This document shows, piece by piece, positions 142-48,503 of a DNA stretch of 64,000 nt. Position numbers and translations under genes: made by a program. Location of the stretch: positions 1 through 64,000 of the forward strand of contig JAIPGM010000005.1 in the NCBI GenBank assembly GCA_021735655.1, given 5' to 3'. Numbering within the stretch: position 1 is the stretch's first letter; the number at the start of each line of letters is the position of its first letter. Origin of the DNA: Candidatus Omnitrophota bacterium (GTDB lineage Bacteria > Omnitrophota > Gorgyraeia > Duberdicusellales > 4484-171). The notes below the pieces were generated by a model. It worked only from the letters and a program-made list of their open reading frames with translations, was not told the origin of the DNA and ran no database searches.

Positions 142-1677
142 ATGGCTAGAGAATACTTAACCCCTACTGAAGCAGCTAAGATACTTAACCTATCACGCCA
201 AGCAGTAATTGAACGAATTAAGGCTGGTTCGCTTTATGCTGAACGGGTTGGTAAACGCTACATCATCCCCCGGAATCAACTCCCTTCTGAAAACGAGACT
301 TTAAACATCAAGAAACCAGCTGAAATCGGAATTTCTCTAAATAAAAAATCGCGAAAAGAGGCTATCAAAAAAGTCTTAGACAAAATAGCCAAAGATAACA
401 TCAGAACAATCCAACTTTGGTTTGTTGATATCTTAGGAATATTAAAGTGTGTCTCAATAACTCAAGGTGAATTAAAGGAAGCCCTTGATCACGGCAAAGG
501 CTTTGATGGCTCGTCAGTGACCGGATTCGCTGAAGCCCAAGAATCCGATATCCTCGCTTTGCCTGATCCCTATACTTTTAAAGTATTGCCTTGGACAGCA
601 AAAGACAATCCAATTGCCAGGATGTTTTGTGATATTTTAAATACTGACTCAACTCCCTATGCCGGAGACCCCCGTTATGTTCTAAAGCGATCTTTGGCCC
701 GAGCTGAGAAACTGGGGCTTACTTTCTTTGTCGGACCGGAGTTAGAATATTTTTATTTCAAATCCGACAAAAAACCAGAAGTAATCGACGAAGGGTCATA
801 TTTTGAACTAATCCCTAATGATCTCGCTGATGTCTTAAGAAACAAAACCGTACGAATACTAGAAGAAATGGGCATTGAAATGGAAGCAACCCACCATGAG
901 GTAGCCCCTTCCCAACATGAAATAGATCCCAAATATAACGACGCCCTTACCATGGCTGATAATGTAATGACCTGTAAATACGTAATCAAGGAAATTGCCC
1001 AACAAAACGGGGTTTATGCAACTTTTATGCCTAAACCTCTATTCGGTGAAAATGGCTCTGGCATGCATGTTCATCAATCACTTTTCAAAGGCGAAAAGAA
1101 CGCCTTTTTTGATAAAAAAGATAAACACCATTTGTCAGCTATAGCTAAAAATTTCATTGCCGGTGAGCTTAAGCATGCGCGAGAAATATCCTCGCTTACC
1201 GCTCAATGGGTAAATTCCTACAAAAGATTGGTCTCCGGTTATGAAGCACCAGTCTATGCCTCCTGGGCTCAAAAGAACCGTACTGCTCTATTAAGGGTTC
1301 CTCTCTATCGACCAGGCAACGAAAAGGCAACTCGAGTCGAATTGCGCTGTCCAGATCCGGCCTGTAACCCTTACCTTGCTTTTGCCGTAATGCTGGCAGC
1401 CGGACTAGAAGGAATCGAAAAAAAATACGAAATTCCTGCACCGGTTGAACCAAACATCTATCATATGGCCATGGAAGAAAGAGAAAGACGAGGATTGACT
1501 TCTCTACCGGGGAATCTCTTTGAAGCAATTATCGAAACAGAAAAAAGTAGCTTCGTAAAAGACACCCTCGGTGAACATATCTTCAATCGTTTCTTATTCA
1601 ATAAGAAGAAAGAATGGGAAGAATACCGTACTCAAATCACCGAACACGAAATTAAAAAGTATTTACCTTTACTTTAA
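142..1677 (+). CDS. Glutamine synthetase type I paralog with a ~70-aa N-terminal excisionase/MerR-like HTH extension.
   Basis: 511-aa ORF. Strong RBS (taggaggaaat) before the ATG. N-terminus LTPTEAAKILNLSRQAVIERIKAGSLYAERVGKRYIIP matches the excisionase-family HTH pattern. The rest is full-length GS-I (DGSS, MPKPLFGENGSGMHVHQSL, NPYLAFA motifs), about 60 % identical to the second glnA in this window. Confidence 0.85.
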   Translation: MAREYLTPTEAAKILNLSRQAVIERIKAGSLYAERVGKRYIIPRNQLPSENETLNIKKPAEIGISLNKKSRKEAIKKVLDKIAKDNIRTIQLWFVDILGILKCVSITQGELKEALDHGKGFDGSSVTGFAEAQESDILALPDPYTFKVLPWTAKDNPIARMFCDILNTDSTPYAGDPRYVLKRSLARAEKLGLTFFVGPELEYFYFKSDKKPEVIDEGSYFELIPNDLADVLRNKTVRILEEMGIEMEATHHEVAPSQHEIDPKYNDALTMADNVMTCKYVIKEIAQQNGVYATFMPKPLFGENGSGMHVHQSLFKGEKNAFFDKKDKHHLSAIAKNFIAGELKHAREISSLTAQWVNSYKRLVSGYEAPVYASWAQKNRTALLRVPLYRPGNEKATRVELRCPDPACNPYLAFAVMLAAGLEGIEKKYEIPAPVEPNIYHMAMEERERRGLTSLPGNLFEAIIETEKSSFVKDTLGEHIFNRFLFNKKKEWEEYRTQITEHEIKKYLPLL

Positions 1678-29698: not shown

Positions 29699-30400
29699 TC
29701 AGTCTTTTTTTATTTCTTGAGCTAAGATAACTGCCTCAGCAATTTCCTTCATCGAAACCCGCTTGTCCATACTTATCTTTCTTATTAAAGCATAGGCTTT
29801 ATCTTCGGTTAATTTTTGCTGATTCATCAAAATGCCTTTGGCCCGCTCGATCTTTTTACGGGCCTGAAGCTCTTCCTGAACTATCTGAGTCTTAACCATT
29901 AACTCCGTATTCTCAATAGCAACTGCGGCCTGATTAGCCACAGTACTGAGAAGCTTAATGTCGCCTTTGGTGAACTTATACTCTGTAGTCGTATAGCAGT
30001 TAATAACTCCGACTGCTCTTCGCTTAACCATCATCGGCACACTAAGCATTGAAACCAACCCTAGCAATTTAGCCAGCTTTTTTTCTTTATAGCTCTTATC
30101 TTTGGAAACATCTAAAATAGTTATCGGTTTTTTGTCATGAGCAACCAGACCGACTATACCTTCGCCTATCTTTAAACTCCGCTCCTTTAAATATTCGCTA
30201 TTTAAAGCCTGGGTAGCTCTTATTTTTAACTCTTTTTTCTTATCATCTAAAAGCCATAAAGCACAAATCTTGGCCTTCATTACATTAGCAGTTAAAGTTA
30301 CTATCAACTTCAATACGTCTTCCAAATATAAATCAGAAGTAATAGCAATGCTAATTTTACTTAAAGTATCGATGTAAGCTTTGTAAGAAGTTTTTGGCAT
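29699..30400 (-). CDS. GAF-ANTAR RNA-binding antitermination regulator.
   Basis: 233 aa. N-terminal GAF-like domain. The C-terminus (ELQARKKIERAKGILMNQQKLTEDKAYALIRKISMDKRVSMKEIAEAVI) is a typical ANTAR coiled-coil/helical domain. Confidence 0.8.
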   Translation of the reverse strand: MPKTSYKAYIDTLSKISIAITSDLYLEDVLKLIVTLTANVMKAKICALWLLDDKKKELKIRATQALNSEYLKERSLKIGEGIVGLVAHDKKPITILDVSKDKSYKEKKLAKLLGLVSMLSVPMMVKRRAVGVINCYTTTEYKFTKGDIKLLSTVANQAAVAIENTELMVKTQIVQEELQARKKIERAKGILMNQQKLTEDKAYALIRKISMDKRVSMKEIAEAVILAQEIKKD

Positions 30401-30410
30401 AATATTTTAT

Positions 30411-30890
30411 TTACCGACCTAAGCGCAGTTCAAATTGACTCGTTCCGTCAGATAAAAGAACTGTGCTCGGGGTAATTTCGATTATAGTCTTTTTACCAAC
30501 CTGATCACCTAGCCCGACTATTCTATCGTCAATTACTGCCTTCGGATCTTTTTCATTCCAAATAATACCACCAAGGCTTAGCCCGCTGCCAATTACTTTA
30601 GTTTCAATCCGATTTTGAGTAAAAGGGTCTCTTTTTAAAGCAAGCAGCCTGGTCTCTTCTTCTAGTTTTTGATACAACCCTTCAGTTAGTTGCTTGGCAA
30701 CAGTATTTGGATACAAAGTATTATAAGGTATATTGCTATCTTCTTGCTCAGTTAAAACAGTAGATTCCAATGTTTTTTTTCTACGCTCCTGAACCTTCTG
30801 AACAGTTTTCTTAGCATTACCAATAGCCATAATCAATATTAGCACTAGGAAACCGGTAATTATGAGTTTTATTTTATCCTTCTTGCTCAT
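30411..30890 (-). CDS. Pilus assembly protein, PilP-like (tentative).
   Basis: 159 aa. N-terminal TM then a beta-rich domain. Position after PilO in the cluster. Confidence 0.4.
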   Translation of the reverse strand: MSKKDKIKLIITGFLVLILIMAIGNAKKTVQKVQERRKKTLESTVLTEQEDSNIPYNTLYPNTVAKQLTEGLYQKLEEETRLLALKRDPFTQNRIETKVIGSGLSLGGIIWNEKDPKAVIDDRIVGLGDQVGKKTIIEITPSTVLLSDGTSQFELRLGR

Positions 30891-30907: not shown

Positions 30908-31492
30908 CTACGATAAAAGATAAATCTTGAAATCCAAACTAACTTTCAATTTTCTATCCTTAGCCGATGAGTCTTTGATAATCTCTATTCTCTCAACGGT
31001 CACCAAGGCTAAGAGCTCGCTCCTAAGCCTCTCGATGTATTGCACTAACTCTGTATATGTGCAGTTAATCTCAATAGCAACCAAAATACTTTGGCAAATT
31101 CTTTGACCTATTGCTAGAGCCTCCTTTTTGCCTTGGAGAACTGCTTGCTTAGCTCCCGGCTTAAAAGAAATAATACTAATATTCGACTGACGAGCTAAAT
31201 CAGAAATCTTACTTAAAGCCTCCTCTTCCTTGACTGGAAACTTACCCTCTAGGGCTGAGAATCTTTCTTTAAGCAGAGTTATCCCTTTTTCTAAAGAGCC
31301 TGCTTCCAGGGCTATTTTTTCAATGTCTGAAACCTCTTTCTCGATATTTGCAAGTTCTAACTTTAAGGCTGCTACTTTCTTACGGCTAGGGCTATAAATT
31401 AATGACCAAAAAATTATAAAAGCTAACAAAACAATAACAGTGATGATTATTATCTTTTTTTGACTCTGAGTTATTTGATTTAAACTTATCAT
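30908..31492 (-). CDS. Type IV pilus assembly protein PilO-like.
   Basis: 194 aa. N-terminal TM plus coiled coil plus C-terminal domain. Synteny after PilMN. Confidence 0.55.
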   Translation of the reverse strand: MISLNQITQSQKKIIIITVIVLLAFIIFWSLIYSPSRKKVAALKLELANIEKEVSDIEKIALEAGSLEKGITLLKERFSALEGKFPVKEEEALSKISDLARQSNISIISFKPGAKQAVLQGKKEALAIGQRICQSILVAIEINCTYTELVQYIERLRSELLALVTVERIEIIKDSSAKDRKLKVSLDFKIYLLS

Positions 31493-35591: not shown

Positions 35592-35969
35592 TTATTGAAA
35601 CGTTCCGTTGGCAACAGTGTAGTTGTAAACAGTACCGGTCGGACCAGTATAGTTAACACCTGAGGCCCTGCTCCAATCCTGAGTTACTCCTTGAGCCAAT
35701 ACATTCTCAAAGCAAGGATCAGCTACGCTGCAAGTAGTATTATTATTATCCCCAAGAGTAGTCGGCCAAGCACAAGTCCCACCGGCACAAGCATTAGCAT
35801 AAAAAGTTGCTATGCCAGAGCGCACACCGCCGATTATACCCTTCTCGGCAGCTATCTGGGCTTGAGATTGAAGATCGTAGTATTTAGGAATAGCTACCGC
35901 AGCTAAGATTCCCAAAATAACAATGATCATGATTAGCTCGATCAAAGTAAAACCTTTTCTCATAAACAC
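35592..35969 (-). CDS. Major type IV pilin / GspG-like pseudopilin.
   Basis: MFMRKGFTLIELIMIIVILGILAAVAIP is a canonical prepilin N-methylation motif. 125 aa, Cys-rich C-terminus. Confidence 0.85.
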   Translation of the reverse strand: MFMRKGFTLIELIMIIVILGILAAVAIPKYYDLQSQAQIAAEKGIIGGVRSGIATFYANACAGGTCAWPTTLGDNNNTTCSVADPCFENVLAQGVTQDWSRASGVNYTGPTGTVYNYTVANGTFQ

Positions 35970-35973
35970 CTCC

Positions 35974-37191
35974 TTATCGTTTAAAAATTGCCATTAAATT
36001 CCACATTGGTAAAAATATTCCCAGAGCCATAAAAAGAACACCACAGCCTAAAACAAGTATCATTATCGGCTCAATCAAGGAACTAAAATTTTCAATTGTA
36101 TATTCAATCTGGCTATCGTAATAGTCAGAAACAAATAAAAGTAGTTCATCAACTCTACCGGAATCTTCACCTACTGCAACCATTTGAGTTACTACCGGAG
36201 CAAACATTCCACTCTTCTTCATTGGATTGGCAATTCCCTCTCCCTCATTGACCGAAGTCCGGATATCATTTATCGTCTTTTCAATCACTGCATTGCCTAT
36301 ACCACCGGAAGAAAGCTCCAAAACCCGCAAAATTGGCACGCCTGAATGCATCAGAGTGCCGGTGGCCCGGCAGAAACGAGACATATACATTTTCAAAAAT
36401 AACGGCCCAAAAACCGGAACCTTTAATTTAAATTTATCCCATAAAAATCGCCCGCCTTTCGTATTGATATATTTGTAAAAAGAAAAAATAACTATACCTA
36501 ACAAAATCCCGGTAAGCCACCAATATTGACTGACCGCAGTATTAATCCAAATAAGCACCCGGGTTGGTAAAGGTAAAACTATATTAGCCGCTGAGTAAAT
36601 CTTAACAAAACGAGGAATTACAAAAATGATCAGAATAAAAAAAGCAATCGCCATAGCGCAAACTACCATCATCGGATAACGAGTTGCGCTCTTAATCTGC
36701 ATCTTTATTTTTTCTTCATGGACTCCTAAGGCGCTTAAGCGCTCTAAGGATTCACCTAGGGTTCCACTTTCCTCAGCCGACTTAAGCATATTAGTATAAA
36801 GCGGACTGAAAACTTTCGGGTGTCTCTCAAGAGCGCTTGATAAGTCATTGCCCTCTCTTATTTCTCGAGACACCGCTTCTAAGGTTTTTTTAAAAAGTTT
36901 ATTACTAGTTTGATCACCGAGTGCCACTAGGCTTGAAAGAATAGTTACTCCAGCCCGTTGCAAAGTTGCAAACTGACGAGTAAACATATTAATTTCAGAA
37001 AGTTTAACCTTTTTAAACCGGCGTAACAACTCATTTAAAAAATTAGCTTCCTTACTCGACTCTTCTATAGTTACAGGCAAATAGTCCATTTCTTTAAGCT
37101 TATTAGCAACTGCATTTTCGGTTTCAGCTTCCATTGAACCGGTGACCAGCTTACCTTGTTTGTCGCGAGCCTTGTATTGAAATTCAGCCAT
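35974..37191 (-). CDS. Type IV pilus / T2SS inner-membrane platform protein (PilC/GspF).
   Basis: 405 aa with the duplicated GspF-domain architecture and three TM helices. Confidence 0.85.
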   Translation of the reverse strand: MAEFQYKARDKQGKLVTGSMEAETENAVANKLKEMDYLPVTIEESSKEANFLNELLRRFKKVKLSEINMFTRQFATLQRAGVTILSSLVALGDQTSNKLFKKTLEAVSREIREGNDLSSALERHPKVFSPLYTNMLKSAEESGTLGESLERLSALGVHEEKIKMQIKSATRYPMMVVCAMAIAFFILIIFVIPRFVKIYSAANIVLPLPTRVLIWINTAVSQYWWLTGILLGIVIFSFYKYINTKGGRFLWDKFKLKVPVFGPLFLKMYMSRFCRATGTLMHSGVPILRVLELSSGGIGNAVIEKTINDIRTSVNEGEGIANPMKKSGMFAPVVTQMVAVGEDSGRVDELLLFVSDYYDSQIEYTIENFSSLIEPIMILVLGCGVLFMALGIFLPMWNLMAIFKR

Positions 37192-38864
37192 TACTTAACC
37201 TTGGTTACCTTTAATACTTCTTCCGCTGTAGTAATACCCTGACTTACCTTCTCTAAGCCGTCCTCGCTTAAGGTTTTTATCCAACCTGAGGCTACGGCCC
37301 TTTCTAATATCTTATCAGCTGATTGTTTTTCATTAACCATATTGCGTATCTCATCGTTAATAGTGAAAAACTCATAGATTCCAGTTCTTCCCATAAATCC
37401 AGTATTATCGCATTTTTTGCAACCCTTGCCACGATAAAATAAATTCTTGATTTTAACACCTAAATCTTTCAAAATAGACTCTGATGGTTTATACTCTTCT
37501 TTACACTTATCACAAATTACTCTCACTAATCTTTGAGCAATAACCCCAATAACCGAGCTAGAAACTAAAAACGGTTCAACCCCCATATCAACCAAACGGG
37601 TTAAAGATGATACAGCATCATTAGTGTGTAGTGTCGAAAGAACCAAATGTCCGGTAAGCGAAGCTCTAATTGCAATCTCAGCGGTTTCCTTATCACGAAT
37701 TTCACCAACCATAATCACATCCGGATCCTGACGCAAAATTGCTCGAAGACCTTCAGCAAAAGTAACACCAATTTTAGAATTTACCTGGGTCTGGCGTATT
37801 AAAGGCAATTCATATTCAACTGGATCCTCAATAGTAATAATATTTTTATCAATTGAATTAATAGTAGTTAGAGCTGCATAAAGAGTAGTAGTTTTTCCGC
37901 TTCCGGTAGGCCCAGTTACTAGAATAATTCCATTAGGCCGATGGATAAGTTTATTAAGTGCCTCTAGACTTTCATTAGATAAACCTAGATCTTTAAGCCC
38001 TAAAACAACTGACGACTTATCTAAAATTCTCATTACCACATTCTCTCCGTGAACTGTCGGAAAAGTTGAAACTCTGATGTCAATATCCCGATTTTCTATC
38101 TTTAAACGAATTTTTCCATCTTGGGGCCGGCGATTCTCAGCAATATCTAAATTAGCCAAAATTTTAATTCGCGAGGTTAAAGCTCGATTTAAGGCTTTGG
38201 GTAAATTGTGGGACTCACGGAGAACTCCATCAACTCGGTTGCGGACCAGTAAAGTTTTAGCTTCTGGTTCAATATGAATATCCGAAGCCCGTTCCTTCAC
38301 TGCCTTAGAAATAATTAAGCTAACCAATTTTACTACCGGAGCTTCTTCGGCAATTTCAGCTAAATCCTTATCGTCCTTGACTGAAATTCTTTCAGTATCG
38401 ATAGAATCAACGATTTCGTCAACTGTAGATGAACCACCATAATAGATATCTAAAATCTTTTGAATCCCGGTCTCAGAGGCTACAACCGGATCAATAGCAT
38501 CCATCTGGCTCATCTTACGAGCCTGATCCAAAGCTACTATGTCCTGAGGGTTAAACATAGCTACGGTTAAACTAGTACCAACCTTAAATAAAGGCACCAT
38601 TTTATATTTTTTAGCTAATTTTTCAGGAATTAACTTGGTTAATTCTGAATCAATAACGTATTCGCCTAAATCCATATAGGGCACACCTAAAGCTTTAGCC
38701 CTAACTTCAGCAATACTTTCCTCACTGATAAACTTTAACTTTTCCAAAGCCTTAATAATCGAAAGGCCAGTACGCCTGGTCTCGATCGTTGCCTGATCGA
38801 GCTGTTCCTGAGTAATCAAATTCTCTTTTAGTAATAAATCAGCTATCTCTTGTTTTTTAGCCAT
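37191..38864 (-). CDS. Type IV pilus assembly / T2SS ATPase (PilB/GspE).
   Basis: 557 aa. N-terminal GspII_E_N domain, Walker A GPTGSGKTTT, and a C-terminal tetracysteine CDKC...CKKC. Confidence 0.9.
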   Translation of the reverse strand: MAKKQEIADLLLKENLITQEQLDQATIETRRTGLSIIKALEKLKFISEESIAEVRAKALGVPYMDLGEYVIDSELTKLIPEKLAKKYKMVPLFKVGTSLTVAMFNPQDIVALDQARKMSQMDAIDPVVASETGIQKILDIYYGGSSTVDEIVDSIDTERISVKDDKDLAEIAEEAPVVKLVSLIISKAVKERASDIHIEPEAKTLLVRNRVDGVLRESHNLPKALNRALTSRIKILANLDIAENRRPQDGKIRLKIENRDIDIRVSTFPTVHGENVVMRILDKSSVVLGLKDLGLSNESLEALNKLIHRPNGIILVTGPTGSGKTTTLYAALTTINSIDKNIITIEDPVEYELPLIRQTQVNSKIGVTFAEGLRAILRQDPDVIMVGEIRDKETAEIAIRASLTGHLVLSTLHTNDAVSSLTRLVDMGVEPFLVSSSVIGVIAQRLVRVICDKCKEEYKPSESILKDLGVKIKNLFYRGKGCKKCDNTGFMGRTGIYEFFTINDEIRNMVNEKQSADKILERAVASGWIKTLSEDGLEKVSQGITTAEEVLKVTKVK

Positions 38865-38884: not shown

Positions 38885-40216
38885 TTATCTACGTATCCTC
38901 AAATTCTTAGGAAGAGTGACTGTAAAAGTTGTCCCTTTGTTAATTTCAGAATCAACGAAGGTCTCTCCTCCGTGCATCTCAACAATATCCTTAACGATCG
39001 ATAAGCCCAAGCCGCTACCTTTAACTTTATCCTTAGAATACCCTTCGATTCTTTTGAATCGATCAAAAATTTTGTCTAAATCTTGCTTCGGCATACCAAT
39101 GCCAGTATCAGAAACGATAATCTTTACATTTTTTTCAGTATCTTCAAGTTTCAGGTTAATCTTACCCTTTGGTTTGTTATATTTTATAGCATTGTCGATA
39201 AAGTTTGAGATAACTTCATAAAGCTTATCTTCGTCCCCCCAAATTTCTATTTTTCTATTTGGCAAAGAAATCTTGATGTCGACTTCCTTTTTTTGGGCCA
39301 GCGGCCTAAGGGTTGCTACTGCTAATTCAGCTATCCTTCCTATATCAAAAAGGGTTCTTTTCATCTCCCTAGTTTCAGCATCTACTTTTGAAAAATCTAG
39401 CAAATCATCAATTAGGCGACTTAGACGACTAATGCTTTGAACCGCCAAGCTTAAAAGTTTTTTCTGCTGGCTATTAATATTTCCAGCTATTTCCTCTAGA
39501 ATAATCCCTACCGATTCTTTAATTGCCGTCAAGGGCGTGCGTAACTCATGAGATACATTAGCAATAAAATTGGCCCTTAGGTCATCTAAATGCTTTGTGT
39601 CTTCTCTGAGACGAGAATTAGTGACCGCTAAGGCAGCTAAATCGGCTAACTTGCTTAAAATATCAAGGTCTTCTTCATTGAAAACACCTTTAGAAATTTT
39701 ATTGTTAACATTTATCACCCCAATAACCTTATCTTGTATTTTTAAAGGAACGCTTAATAAAGAATTGGTATTATACTTCCCGTTACGTTTAGAAAAGCGC
39801 GGATCTTTGCTGATATCTTTAACTAATAAAGACTGCCCAGTTTGGGCAACCCAACCAGAAACGCCTTCACCTAGCTTAACTTTTACGTTCTTAATAATCT
39901 CTTTATCTAGACCTTTAGCAAACTTGATTAGCATCTCGCCGGTATTTTTTCCAACCAACATAAGTGAAACAATCCCAACTGACATTACATTAGCGATTCT
40001 ATCCACAAGCATATTAAGAGTTTTCTCTAAATTAAAATTACCGGATATTTCTTTACTAATATTATAAGCCATCGTTAATTTAAAAAGTTCTTTCTCTAAA
40101 AAATCTCGGTTTTCTTTACTTAAGCTACTCTTAAAATCTTTTAAATTAACTAAAGATTTAGTAACCTCTGTTATCGACTTCTTGCGCTTAAACAAACGTG
40201 CGACCGTATTAATCAT
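38885..40216 (-). CDS. GAF-domain sensor histidine kinase.
   Basis: GAF domain, HisKA (VSHELRTPL), HATPase_c (GSGLGLSIV). Confidence 0.85.
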   Translation of the reverse strand: MINTVARLFKRKKSITEVTKSLVNLKDFKSSLSKENRDFLEKELFKLTMAYNISKEISGNFNLEKTLNMLVDRIANVMSVGIVSLMLVGKNTGEMLIKFAKGLDKEIIKNVKVKLGEGVSGWVAQTGQSLLVKDISKDPRFSKRNGKYNTNSLLSVPLKIQDKVIGVINVNNKISKGVFNEEDLDILSKLADLAALAVTNSRLREDTKHLDDLRANFIANVSHELRTPLTAIKESVGIILEEIAGNINSQQKKLLSLAVQSISRLSRLIDDLLDFSKVDAETREMKRTLFDIGRIAELAVATLRPLAQKKEVDIKISLPNRKIEIWGDEDKLYEVISNFIDNAIKYNKPKGKINLKLEDTEKNVKIIVSDTGIGMPKQDLDKIFDRFKRIEGYSKDKVKGSGLGLSIVKDIVEMHGGETFVDSEINKGTTFTVTLPKNLRIRR

Positions 40217-40587
40217 GCTTGTTCTCCAGTCAACTCTTTAATCTTATCTAGTAAAACCTTAGGCTCAAAAGGCTTAACTATATAAGCATCAGCCCCAACT
40301 TCTTGCCCCATTTTCTTATCACTATCTTGAGCCCGGGCCGTAAAAAGAATAATCGGTATGCTTTTATACTTTTCATCAAATTTAAGCATTCGGCAGACTT
40401 TATAACCATCAACCTTAGGAAGCATTAAGTCTAAAATAATTAAATCCGGATTACTCTTCTTTGCTTTGTCCAACGCCTCCTGGCCATCATAAGCAAATAG
40501 AACATCATAACCGCTAGCTTCTAGCCTCATCTTTAACATCTCAACCAACGCTGCTTCATCGTCAACTACGAGTATTTTTTTTGCCAT
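40213..40587 (-). CDS. Single-domain response regulator (CheY-like REC).
   Basis: MAKKILVVDDE..., D...D...K receiver motifs. Start chosen at the ATG preceded by AAAGGGGAGAG. The longer ORF to 40638 would overlap the upstream REC gene. Confidence 0.8.
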   Translation of the reverse strand: MAKKILVVDDEAALVEMLKMRLEASGYDVLFAYDGQEALDKAKKSNPDLIILDLMLPKVDGYKVCRMLKFDEKYKSIPIILFTARAQDSDKKMGQEVGADAYIVKPFEPKVLLDKIKELTGEQA

Positions 40588-40628
40588 CTTGCTCTCCCCT
40601 TTTAAATCCTGATAAATTAACTTTTGTT

Positions 40629-41009
40629 TTATTGACAATACTTATCTGCTACGCTTAAAACCTTATTTATATTTTTAACCTCTTGGGACAAATCTCCAGT
40701 TTTAACAATAAACCCCGAAGCACCCATATCTTTTGCTTTATCGAAAAGTTTCTGATCAGAATAAGCAGTTATAATGAATATCGGTAAATGCTTATCATGT
40801 TTTCTGATTTTTTTTAAGGTGTCTAGACCATTAAGCTTAGGCATTAATATATCAAGTAATACCACGTCCAGCCTTTCATTCTTTATCTTCTCTAAACCCT
40901 CCTTGCCATCAGAAGCAGTGATAACTTCATAATTATTCTCTTTTAGCCTCTGGCTAATCAGATCTAAAAAATCTGGTTCATCGTCCACAACCAATATCTT
41001 TTTTTTCAT
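40629..41009 (-). CDS. Single-domain response regulator (REC).
   Basis: MKKKILVVDDEPDF... receiver domain, 126 aa. Confidence 0.85.
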   Translation of the reverse strand: MKKKILVVDDEPDFLDLISQRLKENNYEVITASDGKEGLEKIKNERLDVVLLDILMPKLNGLDTLKKIRKHDKHLPIFIITAYSDQKLFDKAKDMGASGFIVKTGDLSQEVKNINKVLSVADKYCQ

Positions 41010-41030
41010 CGAACACCTCGCTTTTGATTC

Positions 41031-41402
41031 CTAATCATCTTTCTTAATTTTCTTTAAAATACTTTCTATTTCTTCTTTAATATTACCATCTTTAACGATA
41101 AACCCGGTTGCCCCTGCTCTTTTAGCCTCTTCTTTTCGATTCTCGGTGGAAAAAGATGTCAACATAAATACTGGCAACTTCTTATGTTTATTTCTTATTA
41201 TCTCTAAAGCCGACATTCCGTCAAGTACCGGCATCAATATATCTAAAAAGACTATGTCAGGACTATCACTCTCTACCTTCTCTACTCCTTTCTGACCATT
41301 AACAGCGCTACATATCTCACAATTATTAGCCTCTAATCTAACTTTCATTATCTCCACGAAAACCGGATCATCATCAACAAGTAAAACTTTAAGTTTAGGC
41401 AT
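41031..41402 (-). CDS. Single-domain response regulator (REC).
   Basis: MPKLKVLLVDDDPVF... receiver domain, 123 aa. Confidence 0.85.
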   Translation of the reverse strand: MPKLKVLLVDDDPVFVEIMKVRLEANNCEICSAVNGQKGVEKVESDSPDIVFLDILMPVLDGMSALEIIRNKHKKLPVFMLTSFSTENRKEEAKRAGATGFIVKDGNIKEEIESILKKIKKDD

Positions 41403-41411
41403 AACTACCCC

Positions 41412-44400
41412 TTAACTCCTTCTTGCTTTATCGATTAAGTCAGCTTCACCTTTAGCATCATCGGGATAAGTTGATATCCTTACCCCGAAGGAAACCTTTT
41501 TAACTAATCGTTTTTTAATTAAATAACTATCCAAAGCCCTTCTTAGTCTTTCTTCTATCCTTAAGGCATTATACCTATTACAATCGGCAAGAGTAATTAT
41601 ATACTCCCCGACGACATCCCTAGTCACCAGTCTCCCTTGACCCTTAATAGCACTTTCAAGAATACTGCTAATTTCCTTTACGATTATTTTCATCTCCCTT
41701 AAAGATAACTCTTTATTTAACTCAATAAAATTATCAATATTTAGTATCACAAGCGACATTTTAATATTATCTCTAGCCGCATCCCTGATAGCATCCTTAA
41801 TAAACTCCTTAAATAAAGCATCACTATTATAATTAGGAAAAGTAAAAATAAATTTTGTTCCTTTGCCTTTTGAACTTTCAACCCAAATCCTTCCATTATG
41901 CAACGTAACAATCCCCTTAACAATAGATAAACCCAAGCCAGTTCCTTTTTCACCAGCTCCGACATCGCGCTCAAACTGCTGGAATTTATCGAATATCTTA
42001 GATAAATCACTCTTTGCAATACCTTTCCCGGTATCAACCACGCTACAAACAACCTCGTCATTCTTCGCCTCGATTACGATCTCAATGTAGCCTTTTTCGG
42101 TAAACTTAAAAGCATTATTAATCAAATTAACAAATATTTGAACAGCTTTATCCGAATCAAGATAAACCTCAAGTTTTTTTGTCGGAAGTTTAGTTTTAAT
42201 CTCAAGGCCTTTTTCTTTTGCCTTAAGCTCAAAAGATGAAACCACATCTTTTATTAATCTATTAATATTAATCAACTGCCTTTTAAGTATCACCTTTCCA
42301 GATTCAATTTTAGATATATCCAAAAGTTCATTTATAATCCGAGCTAACCGATCAATATTATTCTTAGAAGTAACAAGAATCCTTTCCTGTTTTTCATTAA
42401 TTTCACCCGGTATCTTATCTAAAATTAAACTTATCCCCTCCTTAGTGATAGATAAGGGAGTACGTAATTCATGAGATACGGTTGCGACAAAATTACTCTT
42501 TAAATCATCAAGTCTTTGAAGCTCGATATTTTTCTGCTCCATTTCTTCATAAAGCATCCTAATAGCTTCTTGATTCTTTTTCCGTTGAGTAATATCCTCG
42601 GCAACCTTAAGGTAATAGTTAACTTCACCGCTGTACTCTCTAATCGGTGATATCGAGGCTTGCTCCCAATAAAGCTGACCATTCTTTTTTTTATTATGGA
42701 ATTCACCTCGCCACTCTTTACCTGCAATAATAGTCTTCCATAAATCGCTATAACTATCCGAAGGCATATCTCCTGACTTTAAAACTCGAGGATTTTTTCC
42801 TAAAACTTCTTCCGATGAATAGCCGGTGAGCTGAGTAAACTTTGGATTTACATAAACAAGATTCCCTTTGACATCAGTAATTACCACCACACTCGGACTT
42901 TGCTCAACGGCACGTGATAATTTTTCCAATTCCTGTTGAGCAATTTTATGCTCAGTGATATTGCGGACTGTAGCCTGAAGGAGCTTCTTACCACTAATTT
43001 CCATAGCAGTTAAGAGAACTGTCGCGAAAAATTCTTCTCCTTTCATCGTTTTATGCTTCCACTCAAAAAAATGTGAGCCTTTATCAATTGCCATTTCCAT
43101 CATTTGTTTAGATTTGACAAAAGAAGAAAGTCCATCTGGTTGCTGTTCGGGCGATACCTCTGCCGGCCCCTTACTAATGAACCCTTCCTCGCTCTCGCAA
43201 GCGAATAATTCTAAAGTGGCCTTGTTGCAGCTCAAAAACTTTCCTTCACAATCTAATGTCATTATCGCATCGCGAGACGAATCGAAAAGAATTCGATATT
43301 TCTCTTCACTCATTCGCACTGCTTCTTCTACTTTTTTGCGCTCAGTGATATCTTCAAAAATTTCTAAAATTGCTTTCTTGCCCTTATAAACCATACCAGC
43401 ATACGTTATTTGAACTACTCGTCCACCAAGCACATCTCTACTTTCACAAGTCTCAATTCCCTCCACCCATACATCTTTCTTAAGCGGACAAAGATCACAT
43501 TGCTTTTTATTGTCTTTATAAGCCTCCCAGCACTTTCTCCCTTCAAGATCGTCGCCACAGGCATGCTTCAATATATTATTGGCAAAAATTATAGTTCCAT
43601 CTTCAGCAACAATATCTATCCCAAAAGGTATAGTAGCTAACAAAGCTTGGTTAAGTTCGTTAATTTTTACTAGCTCTCCCTCAGCTTTTTTACGCATGTC
43701 AATTTCTTTATTTAAATCACTTATAAAGGTAGTCGTATTTTTTAATTTATCGATCATCACATTAAAAGAGTCAGAAAATTGTTCAATTTCATCACCAGTA
43801 TTTATCTCCACTTTGAAATTTAAATTTCCCTCAGCAACCTTAGTTGTAGCTTCATGCAATATTGTTATCGGTTTTACAAAGATTCCGCTAAAAATAAATC
43901 CTAAACCGGCCAACACTATCAATAGAATAATAATAATAATAAGTGAATTAAAAATTAACCTATTTAAAGATTCAAACACCTCGGCTGATTCCTGATCTAT
44001 GCAAATTCTCCACGATAGCCCTCGCTCCAAAAGATTAGATTGCATAACTAAGGCATAAGCGACAAACATTCTCTTTCCTTGAATTTTAGATTTATCTATC
44101 ATCATCCATTGATTCTTATTTTCTAATAGTTTACCTAAATCTTTAGTGCTGAAAAATTTAGCAGTTAGCGGTTTAAATTCAGGATGGTATAGAATGTTGG
44201 CTTCTTGATCAATTAAGACAGCATGGCCAGTTTTTCCGATTTTAAAATTTTCTAAAGCTGAAAAAAAACGTTTTATGTCTAATACGGCCTTACAGACACC
44301 TATCACTTCTCCGGAGCCTCTGATCGGGACCGCTAGAGATATCCCTAAAACATTACTTGATTCATCATAGTTAGCGCCCTCAATGTAAACCTTACCTTCA

Positions 44401-44939
44401 CCGTTATTAAACGCCTCTTGCCACCACTGCTCATCTGCCTGGTAAAAGTCAGTAGTCTTACCTGACGCGGCGACTAAACCTCCAAATCTATCAGTTACGA
44501 ATATTTCACTTAAACTGTTATCGACATCTTTTACTCTAGTTAATCGCTTACTTACTGGACTTTCTAAATATCTTTTAACCAATAAGTTATCTTCGGAATC
44601 GCTAATCCATTCCTCATCCCGGCTTTTAAAATAAGCTCGAATAGCATCCTGATCCATACCTTCATAGTTCAAATTATGCCTTTTAATCTCATCTATACGC
44701 AGAGGATGCGACATGTATATATCTATATCTAAAATTTCCTCATCAATAATCCTAGCCATTGCTGCGCTGAGTAGCTGTGCCATATCGCGATAATCTTCAC
44801 CAATATTATTCCGCAACAGATTAGCTGCCCAAAAATATCCTAAGCTAAGGACTACCGACGCAAAAATAACGAGACACAAACAAATCATTAAGGTAATCTT
44901 GCGTCTAATACCGGTTTTATGTTTTATTTCTTGTTGCAT
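41412..44939 (-). CDS. Multidomain sensor histidine kinase: TM-dCache-TM-HAMP-Cys-rich-PAS(x3)-HisKA-HATPase_c-degenerate GGDEF.
   Basis: 1175 aa. Two TM segments flank a periplasmic Cache-like region. Cys cluster C-x6-C...C-x2-C. Repeated PAS-like blocks. HisKA at SHELRTPL. HATPase at GTGLGLSIV. The C-terminal ~150 aa resemble GGDEF, but with VGEYI in place of GGDEF. Confidence 0.8.
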   Translation of the reverse strand: MQQEIKHKTGIRRKITLMICLCLVIFASVVLSLGYFWAANLLRNNIGEDYRDMAQLLSAAMARIIDEEILDIDIYMSHPLRIDEIKRHNLNYEGMDQDAIRAYFKSRDEEWISDSEDNLLVKRYLESPVSKRLTRVKDVDNSLSEIFVTDRFGGLVAASGKTTDFYQADEQWWQEAFNNGEGKVYIEGANYDESSNVLGISLAVPIRGSGEVIGVCKAVLDIKRFFSALENFKIGKTGHAVLIDQEANILYHPEFKPLTAKFFSTKDLGKLLENKNQWMMIDKSKIQGKRMFVAYALVMQSNLLERGLSWRICIDQESAEVFESLNRLIFNSLIIIIILLIVLAGLGFIFSGIFVKPITILHEATTKVAEGNLNFKVEINTGDEIEQFSDSFNVMIDKLKNTTTFISDLNKEIDMRKKAEGELVKINELNQALLATIPFGIDIVAEDGTIIFANNILKHACGDDLEGRKCWEAYKDNKKQCDLCPLKKDVWVEGIETCESRDVLGGRVVQITYAGMVYKGKKAILEIFEDITERKKVEEAVRMSEEKYRILFDSSRDAIMTLDCEGKFLSCNKATLELFACESEEGFISKGPAEVSPEQQPDGLSSFVKSKQMMEMAIDKGSHFFEWKHKTMKGEEFFATVLLTAMEISGKKLLQATVRNITEHKIAQQELEKLSRAVEQSPSVVVITDVKGNLVYVNPKFTQLTGYSSEEVLGKNPRVLKSGDMPSDSYSDLWKTIIAGKEWRGEFHNKKKNGQLYWEQASISPIREYSGEVNYYLKVAEDITQRKKNQEAIRMLYEEMEQKNIELQRLDDLKSNFVATVSHELRTPLSITKEGISLILDKIPGEINEKQERILVTSKNNIDRLARIINELLDISKIESGKVILKRQLININRLIKDVVSSFELKAKEKGLEIKTKLPTKKLEVYLDSDKAVQIFVNLINNAFKFTEKGYIEIVIEAKNDEVVCSVVDTGKGIAKSDLSKIFDKFQQFERDVGAGEKGTGLGLSIVKGIVTLHNGRIWVESSKGKGTKFIFTFPNYNSDALFKEFIKDAIRDAARDNIKMSLVILNIDNFIELNKELSLREMKIIVKEISSILESAIKGQGRLVTRDVVGEYIITLADCNRYNALRIEERLRRALDSYLIKKRLVKKVSFGVRISTYPDDAKGEADLIDKARRS

Positions 44940-45066: not shown

Positions 45067-45759
45067 TTAGAAAGAAACTTTCAGCTTTGTCCCAAAAATA
45101 TGCAAATCATTCCACTTATCGCTCTTTTCGGTAGTTTCCCAAAGATAGTAGACTTCACCTTTTAGGTTTTTGATGATTTTAAGACCAAATCCGCCATAGA
45201 ACCGGTTGCGGTTTAAAGTTTCAACATCAAAATCATAAAAAATCTCATCAGCTATATAAGGCTGAATCTCTAGTTTGGTAAGCTTAAACGGAGCTTTTAT
45301 GCTAAACTTATTACGATAACGCCAATAATTATCAGCATCCTCACGATTTCGATATTCTAAGCGGCCACGATTGCTAAAGGCCAAATCAAATAATTTCCAT
45401 TTTAGATCAGCATTTAGGTGAGGTCGGTTCTCTACCTTCCAATCGCTACTTTTATCTTCATGAATATGCCGATAGTTTACACCGAGATCTAACCAACTAA
45501 CCAAGCCAGAATAAGTTACTCCTAGATCTGAATGATTATAGTAAGGATTATTAGCATTATCGCCCCAGCGGAACTCTTCTTCAAACGATAGTTTCCAATC
45601 ATCATTAATCTTTTTAGATACGTTCGAAGTATTCCAATATTGAAAGTCGCCATCATCAAAAGAAAAGGAACAAAAAGGAAATAATGCAATCGCAATAGTT
45701 AAAACAATTAACTTTCTCATAGAAAAATAATATACATCACGAAACAAAACTGTCAACAA
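45067..45759 (-). CDS. Putative outer-membrane protein (DUF2490-like beta-barrel).
   Basis: Signal peptide, Trp/Tyr/Asn-rich alternating pattern, C-terminal ...KVSF. Confidence 0.5.
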   Translation of the reverse strand: MLTVLFRDVYYFSMRKLIVLTIAIALFPFCSFSFDDGDFQYWNTSNVSKKINDDWKLSFEEEFRWGDNANNPYYNHSDLGVTYSGLVSWLDLGVNYRHIHEDKSSDWKVENRPHLNADLKWKLFDLAFSNRGRLEYRNREDADNYWRYRNKFSIKAPFKLTKLEIQPYIADEIFYDFDVETLNRNRFYGGFGLKIIKNLKGEVYYLWETTEKSDKWNDLHIFGTKLKVSF

Positions 45760-45780
45760 TAAAGTATATAAAGTTGTCTG

Positions 45781-47307
45781 TTAAACGGGTAGAGTAAATA
45801 TAAAACGGGAGCCTTTTCCTTCACCCTTAGAACTAGCCTCTATTTTTCCCTTATGTTCCTGAATGATATCTTTACAAATTGCAAGGCCCAGCCCAGTTCC
45901 TTCAACTTTTCCGCTTCTGGCTGGTTTAATTTGCTCAAAGGAATGAAAAAGTTTTGGAATATCATTTTTCTTTATACCGATTCCGGTATCAAAAACTTCA
46001 ACTTCGATACTATTGTCTATTTTTCTGGTAACTACAATAACTTCGCCTTTTTTGGTAAATTTAATCGCATTACTGACTAAGTTGCTGATAACTTGACTAA
46101 TCCGATCCTTATCAAACCTTGGCTTAGGTAAATCCTGACCAAGCTTTAAGCTAAACTGCAAACCTTTACGCTCAGCCAAAGGTTGCATTATTTCATAAAC
46201 ATCCCTGACAACCTCATTGACATCGTCCTCTTTAAGCCTAAGCTCCATCTTGCCGGCTTCCAGCTTTTGAAATTCTAAAACATCATTAATCAAACGAGCT
46301 AGACGATTAACGTTCTTTTTGGCCATCGAGAGAAGGTTCTTTTGCTCAGTGTTTGTATCTCCGGCCAACCCATCGAAAACTATACTAATGCTGGTTTTAA
46401 TTGCCGCCAAAGGTGTCCGCAGCTCATGAGAAACCATTGAAGTTAGTTTTGACTTATATTCCACAGCCTCGCGTAACTTTTCTTCAACTCTTTTACGTTC
46501 GCTAATCTCTTTTTTAAGTTCAAGAGTACGCTCATCGACTAATTCTTCAAGATGATCCTGATATTTCTTTAACTCATCGGTCATCGTATTAAACAAAGAA
46601 GCCAAATCGCCGATCTCGTCATTGCCCTTGACCTCGGTATGACGTCCAAATTCCTTATGAGAAATAATATATCTAATAGCTCCCAACAGCTTCGAAATCG
46701 GAACAATAACAATCCTAGAAAGGCTCTGATAAAATAAAAATATACAAAAACCTAAGGCTAACAGTAAAACCAAAAGGTTTTGAGCCCGCATTTTTCTTAT
46801 TTTACTATTTATAATTTCTTGTTTTATCCCAACATTGATCGTCCCGATAACCTCTTCGAACCAAGGAATTGGAATAATTGACTCATAATACTTACCAATA
46901 ACCAAAGTCCTCCGTTGGGAAGTTTTTAACGGATAGAGGTCACCGTATTTACCTTTGTCATAAATACTACTAAAAAAAGGAGATTTAGCATGGTATAAAA
47001 TCTTTCCATCCCGATCAGCAATAAAGCAATAATCAATGCCTTCATTTGCAAATAAAACACTCTGCAAATATTCATCCATACCCGAAAATTCATCGAGCGA
47101 AAAATAACGTAAATTATTGTGTACAGTCCGACGCAAAGCCTTACCAACCGCATAAGATTTTTCCTCCAAGGCTTCTTTATAAGCTACTTTAAAAGAAAAA
47201 ATGGTAATCAATGAATTAGCAGCTACCGCTACAACAATAACTAAAAGAATAACCGAAAATAGCTTGGTTTTGACACTTATATATTTCTTCTCTGATTTTT
47301 TATTCAT
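45781..47307 (-). CDS. Sensor histidine kinase (two TM, periplasmic sensor, HAMP, HisKA, HATPase_c).
   Basis: 508 aa with SHELRTPL and GTGLGLAIC motifs. Confidence 0.88.
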   Translation of the reverse strand: MNKKSEKKYISVKTKLFSVILLVIVVAVAANSLITIFSFKVAYKEALEEKSYAVGKALRRTVHNNLRYFSLDEFSGMDEYLQSVLFANEGIDYCFIADRDGKILYHAKSPFFSSIYDKGKYGDLYPLKTSQRRTLVIGKYYESIIPIPWFEEVIGTINVGIKQEIINSKIRKMRAQNLLVLLLALGFCIFLFYQSLSRIVIVPISKLLGAIRYIISHKEFGRHTEVKGNDEIGDLASLFNTMTDELKKYQDHLEELVDERTLELKKEISERKRVEEKLREAVEYKSKLTSMVSHELRTPLAAIKTSISIVFDGLAGDTNTEQKNLLSMAKKNVNRLARLINDVLEFQKLEAGKMELRLKEDDVNEVVRDVYEIMQPLAERKGLQFSLKLGQDLPKPRFDKDRISQVISNLVSNAIKFTKKGEVIVVTRKIDNSIEVEVFDTGIGIKKNDIPKLFHSFEQIKPARSGKVEGTGLGLAICKDIIQEHKGKIEASSKGEGKGSRFIFTLPV

Positions 47308-48503
47308 TTAACTATATTTTCTCCGGACATTTCTATATATTCAACCGGAACTTTAATTCCGAACTCCTCAGCTTTACGCAAATCAAAAGCAAAACCATTA
47401 TTCTTCGGCCATTCTGGATATATCTCTTTGATTGATCTACCTTCGAATAGCTCTTTAATCATTCTGGCAGCTTGGTGGCCCATGCTTCGGTTAGAAGGAT
47501 ATACAACCATAGTCGCTCCCCAGCCTTGCATAACCGACTCCTTTCCTAGACCAATCAAAGGCTTAGTCGCGTTTTCATAAACCATACGACAAAAATACTC
47601 CTGCACCCCCATCTGATCATTAGGGGCCAAGAAAACATCAACTATCGGATCAAGTTCTAAAACAAACCTCTTAGCTGCTTCAGCCATATATTTGCTTCCT
47701 TTTTCGCCAACAACTAAAGGCACTGAACGAAAAATAATCTTAAAATTCTTAAACTCAAGATTAGTTTTAAAAAGCTCCTCGGCCCACTTACGATAACTCC
47801 TTGACTGAGGCATATCAGCATAAATAAGACCAATAATTTTTGCCTTAGGCATTAACTCTTTGATAAATTCAAAACGGGTCGCAACTCTTAGAGGGTAATG
47901 GACTCCGGTAAAATTATACTTAGGCGGCGCATCAAAATCTTCAATTACTCCAATTCCAACTGGATCGGTATTAGCAGCAAAAACAGCTACTTGATCCTTG
48001 CCTAAAAGTACATTTTTAGCAGCAACGGTCATCACTGTACCATTAATAAAAATAATATCATAATTGTTCGGTAACTGTTCCTTGAGAATCGCCTCGCCTT
48101 TTTTTATATCATTTTCAATGACAAAGTAAGCCAGGCTTAAATTGCCCCCTTCTCGATAACCCCAATAACTGAGACGTTCAAGCATAGCTTCCCTTACCTC
48201 TTTATAGGGCTCTCCGGTTTGAGAATCCAAAATAAGCAGTTTAAAATTTCGGGAAGAATTTTTAGCCACCGCTGGCTGATTCTCGGTAAATAGTGCGGTT
48301 TCCTCAACTCGATCAGAATTAGTACAGGAAATAATTAGGCCTAGGCAAACAAAAATAAACGACCTTAATAATAAATTTAAAAAATTAACACCTTTCATCT
48401 TATGGTGATATTTTACCATAAACCATAAGACACAAAAACAAAAAATCCCCACCTTTTTTAAGGTGGGGATAGCTTGCTTAATTGTTCCTTCAGCCCAATT
48501 CAA
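47304..48503 (-). CDS. Periplasmic ABC-type substrate-binding-like protein (PF04392-like), probable ligand-binding partner of the downstream kinase.
   Basis: 399 aa. Signal/TM N-terminus and periplasmic-binding-protein-like alpha/beta pattern. Four-nucleotide overlap with the HK. Confidence 0.55.
   Translation of the reverse strand: MNWAEGTIKQAIPTLKKVGIFCFCVLWFMVKYHHKMKGVNFLNLLLRSFIFVCLGLIISCTNSDRVEETALFTENQPAVAKNSSRNFKLLILDSQTGEPYKEVREAMLERLSYWGYREGGNLSLAYFVIENDIKKGEAILKEQLPNNYDIIFINGTVMTVAAKNVLLGKDQVAVFAANTDPVGIGVIEDFDAPPKYNFTGVHYPLRVATRFEFIKELMPKAKIIGLIYADMPQSRSYRKWAEELFKTNLEFKNFKIIFRSVPLVVGEKGSKYMAEAAKRFVLELDPIVDVFLAPNDQMGVQEYFCRMVYENATKPLIGLGKESVMQGWGATMVVYPSNRSMGHQAARMIKELFEGRSIKEIYPEWPKNNGFAFDLRKAEEFGIKVPVEYIEMSGENIVK

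Follow-up and report, generated by a model that had tools for sequence, protein, structure and literature searches.

What do two sensor histidine kinases and three stand-alone receiver proteins do when they are encoded directly ahead of the genes for a type IV pilus? This question was raised by a 64,000-nucleotide stretch of DNA from a Candidatus Omnitrophota bacterium (assembly GCA_021735655.1, contig JAIPGM010000005.1, positions 1 to 64,000; hereafter the window), in which a large multi-sensor kinase, three receivers (REC1, REC2 and REC3) and a kinase with a GAF domain (the GAF kinase) precede pilB, the gene of the pilus assembly ATPase. Omnitrophota are uncultured and mostly ultra-small, and type IVa pili have been proposed among the traits behind a host-dependent or predatory life (PMC10066038); the survey that made this proposal discusses pili and does not mention two-component signalling (PMC10066038). 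Our analysis suggested that the five genes form the sensory front end of the Omnitrophota type IV pilus operon, namely a branched two-component network with receiver-only outputs in which phosphorylated REC3 would gate the pilus motor. We assigned this reading a probability of about one half. Judged from the sequences, the whole appears to be a sensory module that serves pilus control and is typical of the lineage.

Kinases, receivers and the kind of network they form

All genes of the kinase-receiver-kinase-pilus series were found on the minus strand in an open reading frame (ORF) check. An earlier, sequence-only reading of the window had given the order large kinase, receivers, GAF kinase and pilB; the ORFs and Pfam matches bore out this order, and the coordinates agreed exactly. 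Because the domain matches were strong, the five kinase and receiver genes were not considered to be chance ORFs. The features were as follows (aa, amino acids):

41412-44939, minus strand: membrane multi-sensor histidine kinase, 1175 aa (Pfam)
44046-44639, minus strand: dCache_1 domain of the large kinase, residues 101-298 (Pfam, E = 5e-20)
43740-43889, minus strand: HAMP domain of the large kinase, residues 351-400 (Pfam)
42570-43652, minus strand: three PAS stretches of the large kinase, up to about residue 790, with a Cys motif in the first (Pfam)
42297-42500, minus strand: HisKA domain of the large kinase, residues 814-881, with H823 (Pfam)
41832-42158, minus strand: HATPase_c domain of the large kinase, residues 928-1036 (Pfam)
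41421-41819, minus strand: degenerate GGDEF tail of the large kinase, residues 1041-1173 (Pfam, 32.4 bits against a gathering score of 23.8)
41031-41402, minus strand: REC1, 123 aa, with D10, D11, D54, T82 and K104
40629-41009, minus strand: REC2, 126 aa, with D9, D10, D53, T81 and K103
40213-40587, minus strand: REC3, 124 aa from ATG, with D9, D10, D53, T83, K105 and P106
38885-40216, minus strand: cytoplasmic GAF-HisKA-HATPase_c kinase, 443 aa, with H223
37191-38864, minus strand: PilB-type assembly ATPase, 557 aa, MshEN fold and T2SSE (Pfam)
35974-37191, minus strand: PilC platform protein, 405 aa (Pfam)

Pfam matches and motifs revealed every module that had been attributed to the large kinase, that is, dCache, HAMP, a Cys cluster, several PAS domains, a kinase core and a degenerate GGDEF tail. 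Hydrophobic segments on both sides (residues 11-42 and 321-361) bracket the dCache domain, which therefore faces outward, and the Cys cluster (C461, C470, C481, C484 and C498) was located within the first PAS-like region. The GAF kinase consisted of GAF (residues 62-198), HisKA (214-281) and HATPase_c (327-437) domains, and a search of this protein for hydrophobic segments found none. Both proteins possessed the H-box His and the N, G1, F and G2 boxes of HisKA-type kinases, and their HisKA and HATPase_c matches were well over the Pfam cut-offs. In particular, the boxes of the large kinase were intact (H823; NNAFKF at 941; DTGKGI at 969, G1; FDKFQQF at 983; GTGLGLS at 999, G2), and those of the GAF kinase, at positions 341, 370, 384 and 400, were intact for ATP binding. 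The two kinase cores were 46% identical and similar around the phospho-His.

The three receivers were each single-domain proteins (Response_reg, E values of 1e-26 to 1e-30), and the acidic pair, phospho-Asp, Thr/Ser and Lys of CheY-like receivers were present in all of them; T82 of REC1 and D53 and T83 of REC3 were taken straight from the sequence. The description of three tandem, output-less receivers with an intact Asp in the sequence-only reading was therefore correct, and the conserved Asp and His residues that it had proposed to check were found at D54, D53 and D53 in REC1, REC2 and REC3, respectively, and at H823 and H223 in the kinases. The real start of REC3 is most likely the ATG at 40587, which has a GGGGAG ribosome-binding site ahead of it; the resulting length of 124 aa agrees with the public gene call. 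The ORF of 141 aa that begins at a TTG is probably too long. REC1 and REC2 were paralogues (42-43% identity) and resembled CheY, Spo0F or NtrC receivers. The best solved-structure matches of REC3 were the B. subtilis PhoP receiver of the OmpR family (E = 2e-33), PleD-D1 (3e-28), RR468 (2e-26) and DivK (7e-21). With the NCBIfam model for stand-alone receivers of the DVU0259/DivK kind (NF045717, cut-off 160 bits), REC3 scored 79 and REC2 60 bits, below the cut-off in both cases. We also observed that REC1 (41091-41093), REC2 (40701-40703) and their class have Asp or Thr after the conserved Lys (VKD, VKT) and not the usual Pro, whereas REC3 keeps Lys-Pro.

The N-terminus of PilB had its best solved matches in PilB and PilF of type IVa pili. 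Against NCBIfam, the protein scored 615 with TIGR02538 (PilB, cut-off 675.65) and 635.5 with TIGR02533 (GspE, cut-off 630.25), and its gene neighbours were PilC, pilins, PilM-PilN and PilO. From the large kinase to the pilin gene, the intergenic gaps ranged from -4 to 41 nucleotides (nt): the stop codon of REC3 overlaps the start of the GAF kinase (ATGA), 20 nt separate the GAF-kinase stop from the pilB start, and 4 nt separate pilC from the start of the pilin gene.

All large ORFs of the 64-kb window were scanned with Pfam, and no Hpt, Spo0B-like protein, CheA, DNA-binding response regulator, PilT or secretin was found; additionally, neither of the two kinases carried a fused receiver of the hybrid type. 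The absence of Hpt, CheA and a DNA-binding regulator, as claimed by the sequence-only reading, thus held across the 64 kb, and its term phosphorelay did not, because the Hpt, Spo0B-like or hybrid step of a multi-step His-Asp-His-Asp relay was encoded nowhere in the window. Control of the PilS-PilR type, with an NtrC-type regulator and a sigma-54 pilin promoter, was ruled out, since the receivers were single-domain proteins without an AAA+ or HTH domain. Chemosensory control of the Pil-Chp or Tax type was likewise ruled out; CheA, CheW and a methyl-accepting receptor were found neither in the window nor in the 11 related pilB-linked loci compared below.

Recurrence of the receiver beside pilB

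We compared the window with 11 other pilB-linked loci, nine of which were obtained through the GAF kinase (L002, L003, L008-L011 and L092-L094) and two through the tail of the large kinase (L096 and L097). Relatives of the GAF kinase formed about 80 clusters at 40-70% identity, and the named ones were nearly all from Omnitrophota. In nine of the nine loci retrieved through relatives of 40-65% identity, the GAF kinase adjoined pilB, and pilC was present too wherever the contig continued. In L094, pilB was present as a fragment at the contig end; in L093, the GAF kinase lay between pilB and pilC; and L003 was labelled Planctomycetia. The number of stand-alone receivers (one to five per locus) and of additional kinases (none to two) varied across these nine loci.

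The other two loci served as a blind test of the pilus link, as they were picked by tail similarity alone. L096 showed the order PAS-kinase-PilZ, PAS-kinase-tail, four receivers, pilB and pilC, and L097 the order dCache kinase, receiver, CHASE3-kinase-tail, receiver, pilB and pilC. Neither contained the GAF kinase. A receiver of the REC3 type was present in both, with identities to the window copy of 81% in L096 and 73% in L097, and in L097 it stood directly before pilB. The recurrence of this adjacency in 11 further loci, with the GAF kinase placed between pilB and pilC in one of them, indicated that the link to the pilus genes proposed in the sequence-only reading is functional and not accidental.

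Upon clustering of 28 receivers from these loci into classes, we found a REC3-type receiver, with the signature DLMLPK.DGYKVCRMLKFDEKYK.IPII.FTARAQ, in 11 of the 11 other pilB-linked loci, within a few genes of pilB. Identities to the window copies across the 11 loci were 56-85% (REC3), 53-77% (PilB), 31-75% (PilC) and 40-65% (GAF kinase), and the value for REC3 exceeded those of the other three proteins in every locus compared. The remaining receivers went with the type of kinase. The REC1/REC2 class occurred in loci with kinases like the large kinase (L093 and L009), and the REC2 subtype in particular was common to L093_4514 (54%) and L009_730 (52%), both in clusters with tailed kinases. A class of 131-134 aa occurred alongside tail-less Cache kinases (L002, L008 and L009), and in L010 and L094 a further class accompanied short kinases that have the tail.

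Synteny was closest with L002, which has the whole upstream block Rex-serC-serA-ABC_sub_bind-sCache kinase-DUF2490 in common with the window and lacks the large kinase and REC1. The cluster is thus not one fixed five-gene unit, nor is the GAF kinase an obligatory terminal element, since L096 and L097 keep REC3 and pilB without it. Because no Hpt or hybrid step was found, the components vary among relatives and receiver classes follow kinase classes, we regard the system as a branched two-component network and not as a relay. In the same way, the composition of L002 and the receiver subtypes that travel with kinase subtypes pointed to parallel kinase-receiver pairs and not to a chain.

Full-length homologues of the large kinase were abundant in Omnitrophota and came nearly all from there, and many were annotated with PF00990. 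The protein aligned piecewise to genes that are separate elsewhere: its dCache-HAMP part to 659-692-aa kinases of L008, L009 and L010; residues 403-680, with the motif G.KC-x10/11-CxxC, to stand-alone PAS proteins of L008, L009 and L093; and residues of about 780 to 1175, comprising core and tail, to short kinases of L009, L010 and L094 as well as to a 1058-aa kinase of L093, the latter with 47% identity to the very end. On these alignments, the large kinase unites in a single protein what other loci encode separately, and such a fusion argues that its modules work together. The Cys motif of its first PAS-like domain, G(R/K)KC-x10/11-CxxC(P) (43440-43555, residues 461-498), was kept in the stand-alone PAS proteins of L009 (3913-4902), L093 (389-1303) and L008 (5265-6545), and may be a metal or redox site.

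Outside the pilB-linked loci, a third kinase looked up for its GGDEF-like tail, of HAMP-GAF-PAS composition, is encoded in an Auribacterota locus (L098/L099; 7001-16760 in L098). Two receivers follow it, and after them comes an exoprotein with a TPS domain that is at least 3,922 aa long. A distant homologue of the GAF kinase (39%) labelled Nitrospirae was found beside REC-EAL and REC-GGDEF genes without pili. In a metagenome scan, the patterns derived from the GAF-kinase alignment were generic to kinases; the best among the matches listed were kinase cores of 27-41% identity, and the scan was of no use for gene context.

Proposed mechanism, its rivals and the GGDEF-like tail

In the proposed mechanism, we infer who phosphorylates whom and what REC3 binds. 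The dCache domain of the membrane kinase would sense a ligand outside the cytoplasm, and its PAS domains, among them the one with the Cys motif, would respond to cues from within. The cytoplasmic kinase would sense a ligand with its GAF domain, and a further kinase, which has an sCache sensor, is encoded just upstream. Both kinases would autophosphorylate on His, and the phosphoryl group would then move to the Asp of a stand-alone receiver. REC3 would be the cognate partner of the translationally coupled GAF kinase and would probably also be reached by the related core of the large kinase, while REC1 and REC2 would be partners of the large kinase that act as extra outputs or phosphate sinks. 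Since no receiver carries an output domain, the output of phospho-REC3 is expected to be a protein-protein contact, and because REC3 persistently sits beside pilB, the pilus motor or its platform is the most likely target. Phospho-REC3 would thus bind the extension motor PilB or its platform, and extension would be gated post-translationally. A direct, PilG/PilH-like output on the pilus had been one option of the sequence-only reading, and we kept it, by inference, as the best reading. REC3 beside pilB, together with its changeable kinases, offers a concrete, testable handle on when Omnitrophota extend pili.

Several known systems resemble this arrangement. In Pseudomonas Pil-Chp (PilG/PilH) and Synechocystis Tax (PixG/PixH and PilG), CheY-like receivers, some of them output-less, steer pilus extension and polarity by protein contacts, and each pathway has several receivers, of which some are antagonistic or act as sinks (PMC10519157, PMC11181946). 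These pathways use a CheA-type kinase, CheW and a methyl-accepting receptor, whereas the window has classical HisKA sensor kinases. The cyanobacterial receivers, unlike those of the window, also carry a PATAN domain, and PATAN-domain receivers are reported to interact with the cyanobacterial pilus motor. Closer precedents for PilB-binding receivers are EmvR and DrdR of Xanthomonas, which are output-less and alter ATPase activity upon binding: EmvR represses the PilB ATPase and is fed by a classical sensor kinase, as proposed here (PMC11973254), and DrdR binds both PilB and PilT (PMC13507683). However, EmvR and DrdR are orphan regulators and DrdR has tandem receivers, whereas REC3 is fixed beside pilB and conserved across the phylum; no sequence orthology is claimed.

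Classical HisKA kinases are also combined with a stand-alone receiver in Thermotoga HK853-RR468 and in Caulobacter DivJ/PleC-DivK, where two kinases act on one single-domain receiver; no orthology is implied. PilS-PilR is similar in that its two-component genes lie inside a type IV pilus cluster. PilR, however, is a receiver-AAA+-HTH activator of the sigma-54 pilin promoter, and the window contained no such AAA+/HTH domain and no sigma-54 promoter signal above chance. Two-component genes in pilus clusters and receiver-only pilus regulators are already known and ordinary. What is new is that a single stand-alone receiver, conserved to an extreme degree, keeps its place beside pilB, that interchangeable classical sensor kinases are predicted to feed it, and that many of these kinases end in dead GGDEF tails and one, in L096, in a PilZ domain. 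We searched the literature for a REC3-type, pilB-linked module and found no description of one.

The tail of the large kinase reads VVGEY at the position of the GGDEF motif. The GG(D/E)EF motif of an active diguanylate cyclase was thus missing, and a cyclase was ruled out, in agreement with the sequence-only reading. The FKxxND.GH..GD stretch was FIELNKELSLREMK, and several residues that we take, from PleD, to contact GTP were lost. An exhaustive HMMER search with the 144-aa tail, in which representative clusters were counted, gave 958 clusters with the E-value limit set at 1e-3, of which 112 also passed a limit of 1e-10; in a look-up of taxa for these matches, a single cluster had a name, Auribacterota. 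The match stood at the extreme C-terminus in nearly all of the matches listed, and ten of ten sampled proteins had a sensor-HisKA-HATPase_c-GGDEF architecture. A word-index search with the same query returned nothing, not even the query protein, and was judged to be an index artefact in view of the 958 HMMER matches. We then aligned 148 tails, with the canonical cyclase P0172 (RKSD ... GGDEF) as an internal ruler. No aligned kinase tail had a GGDEF motif; the consensus was D-(T/S)-G-E-(I/L), with a one-residue deletion. At the I-site position (RxxD), Asp was present in 131 of the 148 tails and Arg in 91-120 of them. The large kinase, which reads GQGR there, was the sole sequence of the 148 with Arg replacing Asp.

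Compared with degenerate-GGDEF receptors of cyclic di-GMP (c-di-GMP) of the SgmT/PopA type, the large kinase therefore had the degenerate A-site and lacked the intact RxxD I-site that such receptors have five residues ahead of it. Because the I-site Asp is lost, c-di-GMP binding is not supported for this protein; the earlier suggestion of a c-di-GMP- or GTP-receiving tail found no support here, given GQGR and the lost GTP-contacting residues. For the tail family as a whole, a c-di-GMP receptor role is reasonable and plausible from the alignment. As far as the literature was searched, this is a sizeable and uncharacterised histidine-kinase family with a cyclase-dead GGDEF end and a mostly kept I-site. 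In L096 (4025-6004), we observed a PAS-HisKA-HATPase_c kinase ending in PilZ (63 bits), beside a tailed kinase, four receivers and pilB, which hints at c-di-GMP input at the kinase level. PilB itself has the MshEN fold (Pfam, 70 bits). The c-di-GMP motif of this fold, known from work on MshE, comprises two copies of RLGxx(L/V/I)(L/V/I)xxG(L/V/I)(L/V/I)xxxxLxxxLxxQ. In the window PilB, copy 1 was EIADLLLKENLI (Arg to Glu, Gly to Ala) and copy 2 was SIIKALEKLKFI (Arg to Ser, Gly to Ile, Gly to Lys), and the NCBIfam c-di-GMP motif model scored 32.4 against a cut-off of 38. With the key Arg and Gly lost in both copies, c-di-GMP binding by this PilB through canonical MshEN motifs was ruled out.

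Among characterised proteins, the nearest analogue is Myxococcus xanthus SgmT, which like the large kinase is a histidine kinase with a dead GGDEF domain; it has a GAF sensor and a link to type IV pilus-dependent behaviour (PMC3509222). This domain (GGGVF) binds c-di-GMP at its I-site, which is intact and reads RHPD (PMC3509222), and the tail family mostly keeps the I-site as SgmT does. In contrast to SgmT, in which a receiver lies between kinase and GGDEF, RHPD is present and the DNA-binding protein DigR is the partner, the large kinase lacks a fused receiver, no longer has the I-site and is accompanied by receiver-only partners. A role of its tail in tuning or localising the kinase, as a receptor of c-di-GMP (or GTP), is very unlikely, even though the tail is a bona fide remnant of the GGDEF fold by its Pfam score, the family largely retains the I-site, the sister kinase of L096 has PilZ in the tail's place and SgmT binds c-di-GMP through just such a site. 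Both the I-site and the A-site of the large kinase speak against this role, as does its FKxxND.GH..GD stretch, and in SgmT itself the tail had no effect on kinase activity (PMC3509222).

A different output is conceivable as well. REC3 and its kinases could govern surface attachment in general, by pili as well as giant adhesins. Their effector would then be unlinked, for instance a transcription factor, an antagonist of a sigma factor or an enzyme of c-di-GMP, and the adjacency to pilB would reflect co-regulation and not physical contact with the motor. We consider this explanation possible, if on balance doubtful. It would account for L098 and L099, where a tailed kinase, a receiver and a REC3-type receiver (65%) precede the giant exoprotein, and for the HTH_17 gene that separates REC3 from pilB in L011; conservation of REC3 above that of PilB would also fit a very conserved non-pilus partner. 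However, in each of the 11 other pilB-linked loci REC3 is no more than a few genes away from pilB, whatever the kinases, no effector candidate was conserved across the loci, and no recognisable regulated promoter, of sigma-54 or other type, stood ahead of the pilus genes. A true multi-step relay, the alternative named in the sequence-only reading, appears very unlikely. In it, phosphate from the large kinase would reach the GAF kinase by way of the receivers, with the GAF kinase serving as terminal phosphatase or reverse acceptor, or would be handed on to an Hpt and a regulator encoded elsewhere. The surplus of receivers over simple pairs in L009, L010 and L096 would suit such a relay, and the alike kinase cores could both touch one receiver, as kinase and phosphatase; but the window lacks an Hpt, Spo0B-like or hybrid element, the ATP-binding boxes of the GAF kinase are intact, L002 keeps the rest without the large kinase and REC1, and L096 and L097 do without the GAF kinase. 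More speculatively, and with low odds for the combination as a whole, REC3-type receivers might be, in Omnitrophota and neighbouring candidate phyla, a dedicated phospho-switch that directly gates attachment machines (the pilus motor and, in Auribacterota, a giant two-partner-secretion adhesin), with c-di-GMP sensed above PilB by interchangeable kinases with I-site-only GGDEF tails or PilZ, as the MshEN motifs of PilB are degenerate. The pilus operon would in that case come with a plug-in set of sensors of its own, all acting on a single invariant output protein, in putative predators or parasites whose contact with a host depends on pili.

The reading that we prefer, REC3 as a phospho-dependent gate of the pilus motor, has several points against it. 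The loci were found through kinases, so that their number is silent on Omnitrophota pilus loci that lack the module. Contact between REC3 and PilB is suggested indirectly, by linkage and conservation, and co-transcription of the cluster by gene spacing. No pilus genes follow the REC3-type receiver in L098 and L099, so its partner may not be pilus-specific, and the small HTH_17 gene between REC3 and pilB in L011 hints at a transcriptional route. Finally, an orphan DNA-binding regulator or an Hpt protein could lie beyond the visible 64 kb.

Transcription signals and neighbouring genes

A scan for promoters and terminators between 31000 and 48800 gave counts no better than those of shuffled sequences. 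Two of its matches deserve mention, namely a strong, terminator-like hairpin that follows serA (48470-48445) and, ahead of DUF2490, a promoter-like sequence that matches at 11/12 positions (45756-45729). The hairpin (48445-48470, minus strand; an 11-bp stem and a T run) lies inside the long, TTG-started ORF of the ABC_sub_bind gene, which suggests that the real start of this gene is further downstream, as in the public 371-aa call. Sigma-54 consensus matches numbered 23 against 22 expected by chance, and none fell within the intergenic gaps of the cluster. The remaining genes of the pilus cluster and those upstream of the large kinase were as follows:

35592-35969, minus strand: pilin gene, kept in L002
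34730-35500, minus strand: gene of unknown family, kept in L002
33966-34733, minus strand: gene with an N-methylation motif, kept in L002
33376-33972, minus strand: gene of unknown family, kept in L002
31507-33135, minus strand: PilM-PilN fusion, a single 542-aa protein
30908-31492, minus strand: PilO
30411-30890, minus strand: conserved 159-aa protein that closes the pilus cluster
45067-48419, minus strand: three genes 5' of the large kinase in the same direction (ABC_sub_bind, sCache-HAMP kinase, DUF2490)
45781-47307, minus strand: sCache-HAMP kinase, between the ABC_sub_bind gene and DUF2490
45067-45759, minus strand: DUF2490 gene, which recurs in L010

The block of ABC_sub_bind, sCache kinase and DUF2490 genes was syntenic in L002, and its genes may belong to the same sensory neighbourhood, with a periplasmic ABC_sub_bind protein. 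We also observed that the DUF2490 gene recurs just upstream of the kinase-receiver-pilB block (window 45067-45759, L002 8178-8834 and L010 3670-4329), and that an OprB porin gene takes its place in L092 (4379-5647) and L094 (2746-3891). Some of the related clusters contained small inserted genes, namely PF05635 (23S rRNA intervening-sequence protein, Avd-like) and an AbiEii-like gene. They were found in L003 (9277-9813 and 12986-13351), L009 (1162-1512) and L092 (6612-6968); L003 and L092 have them between the genes of REC3 and the GAF kinase, and L003 has a second position for them between pilB and pilC.

The other genes of the window were housekeeping genes, chiefly of nitrogen and carbon metabolism. 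A GAF-ANTAR protein (29699-30400), likely an RNA-binding antiterminator, is encoded 10 nt past the last gene of the pilus cluster. Its gene heads a long nitrogen-assimilation block with glutamate synthase subunits, glutamate dehydrogenase, two AmtB, PII, glutamine synthetases and carbamoyl-phosphate synthase. Additionally, a glutamine synthetase-like protein (142-1677, plus strand) was found to have an N-terminal HTH_17 DNA-binding domain (residues 5-47), and its gene was one of only two plus-strand ORFs of at least 100 aa that were free of minus-strand overlap.

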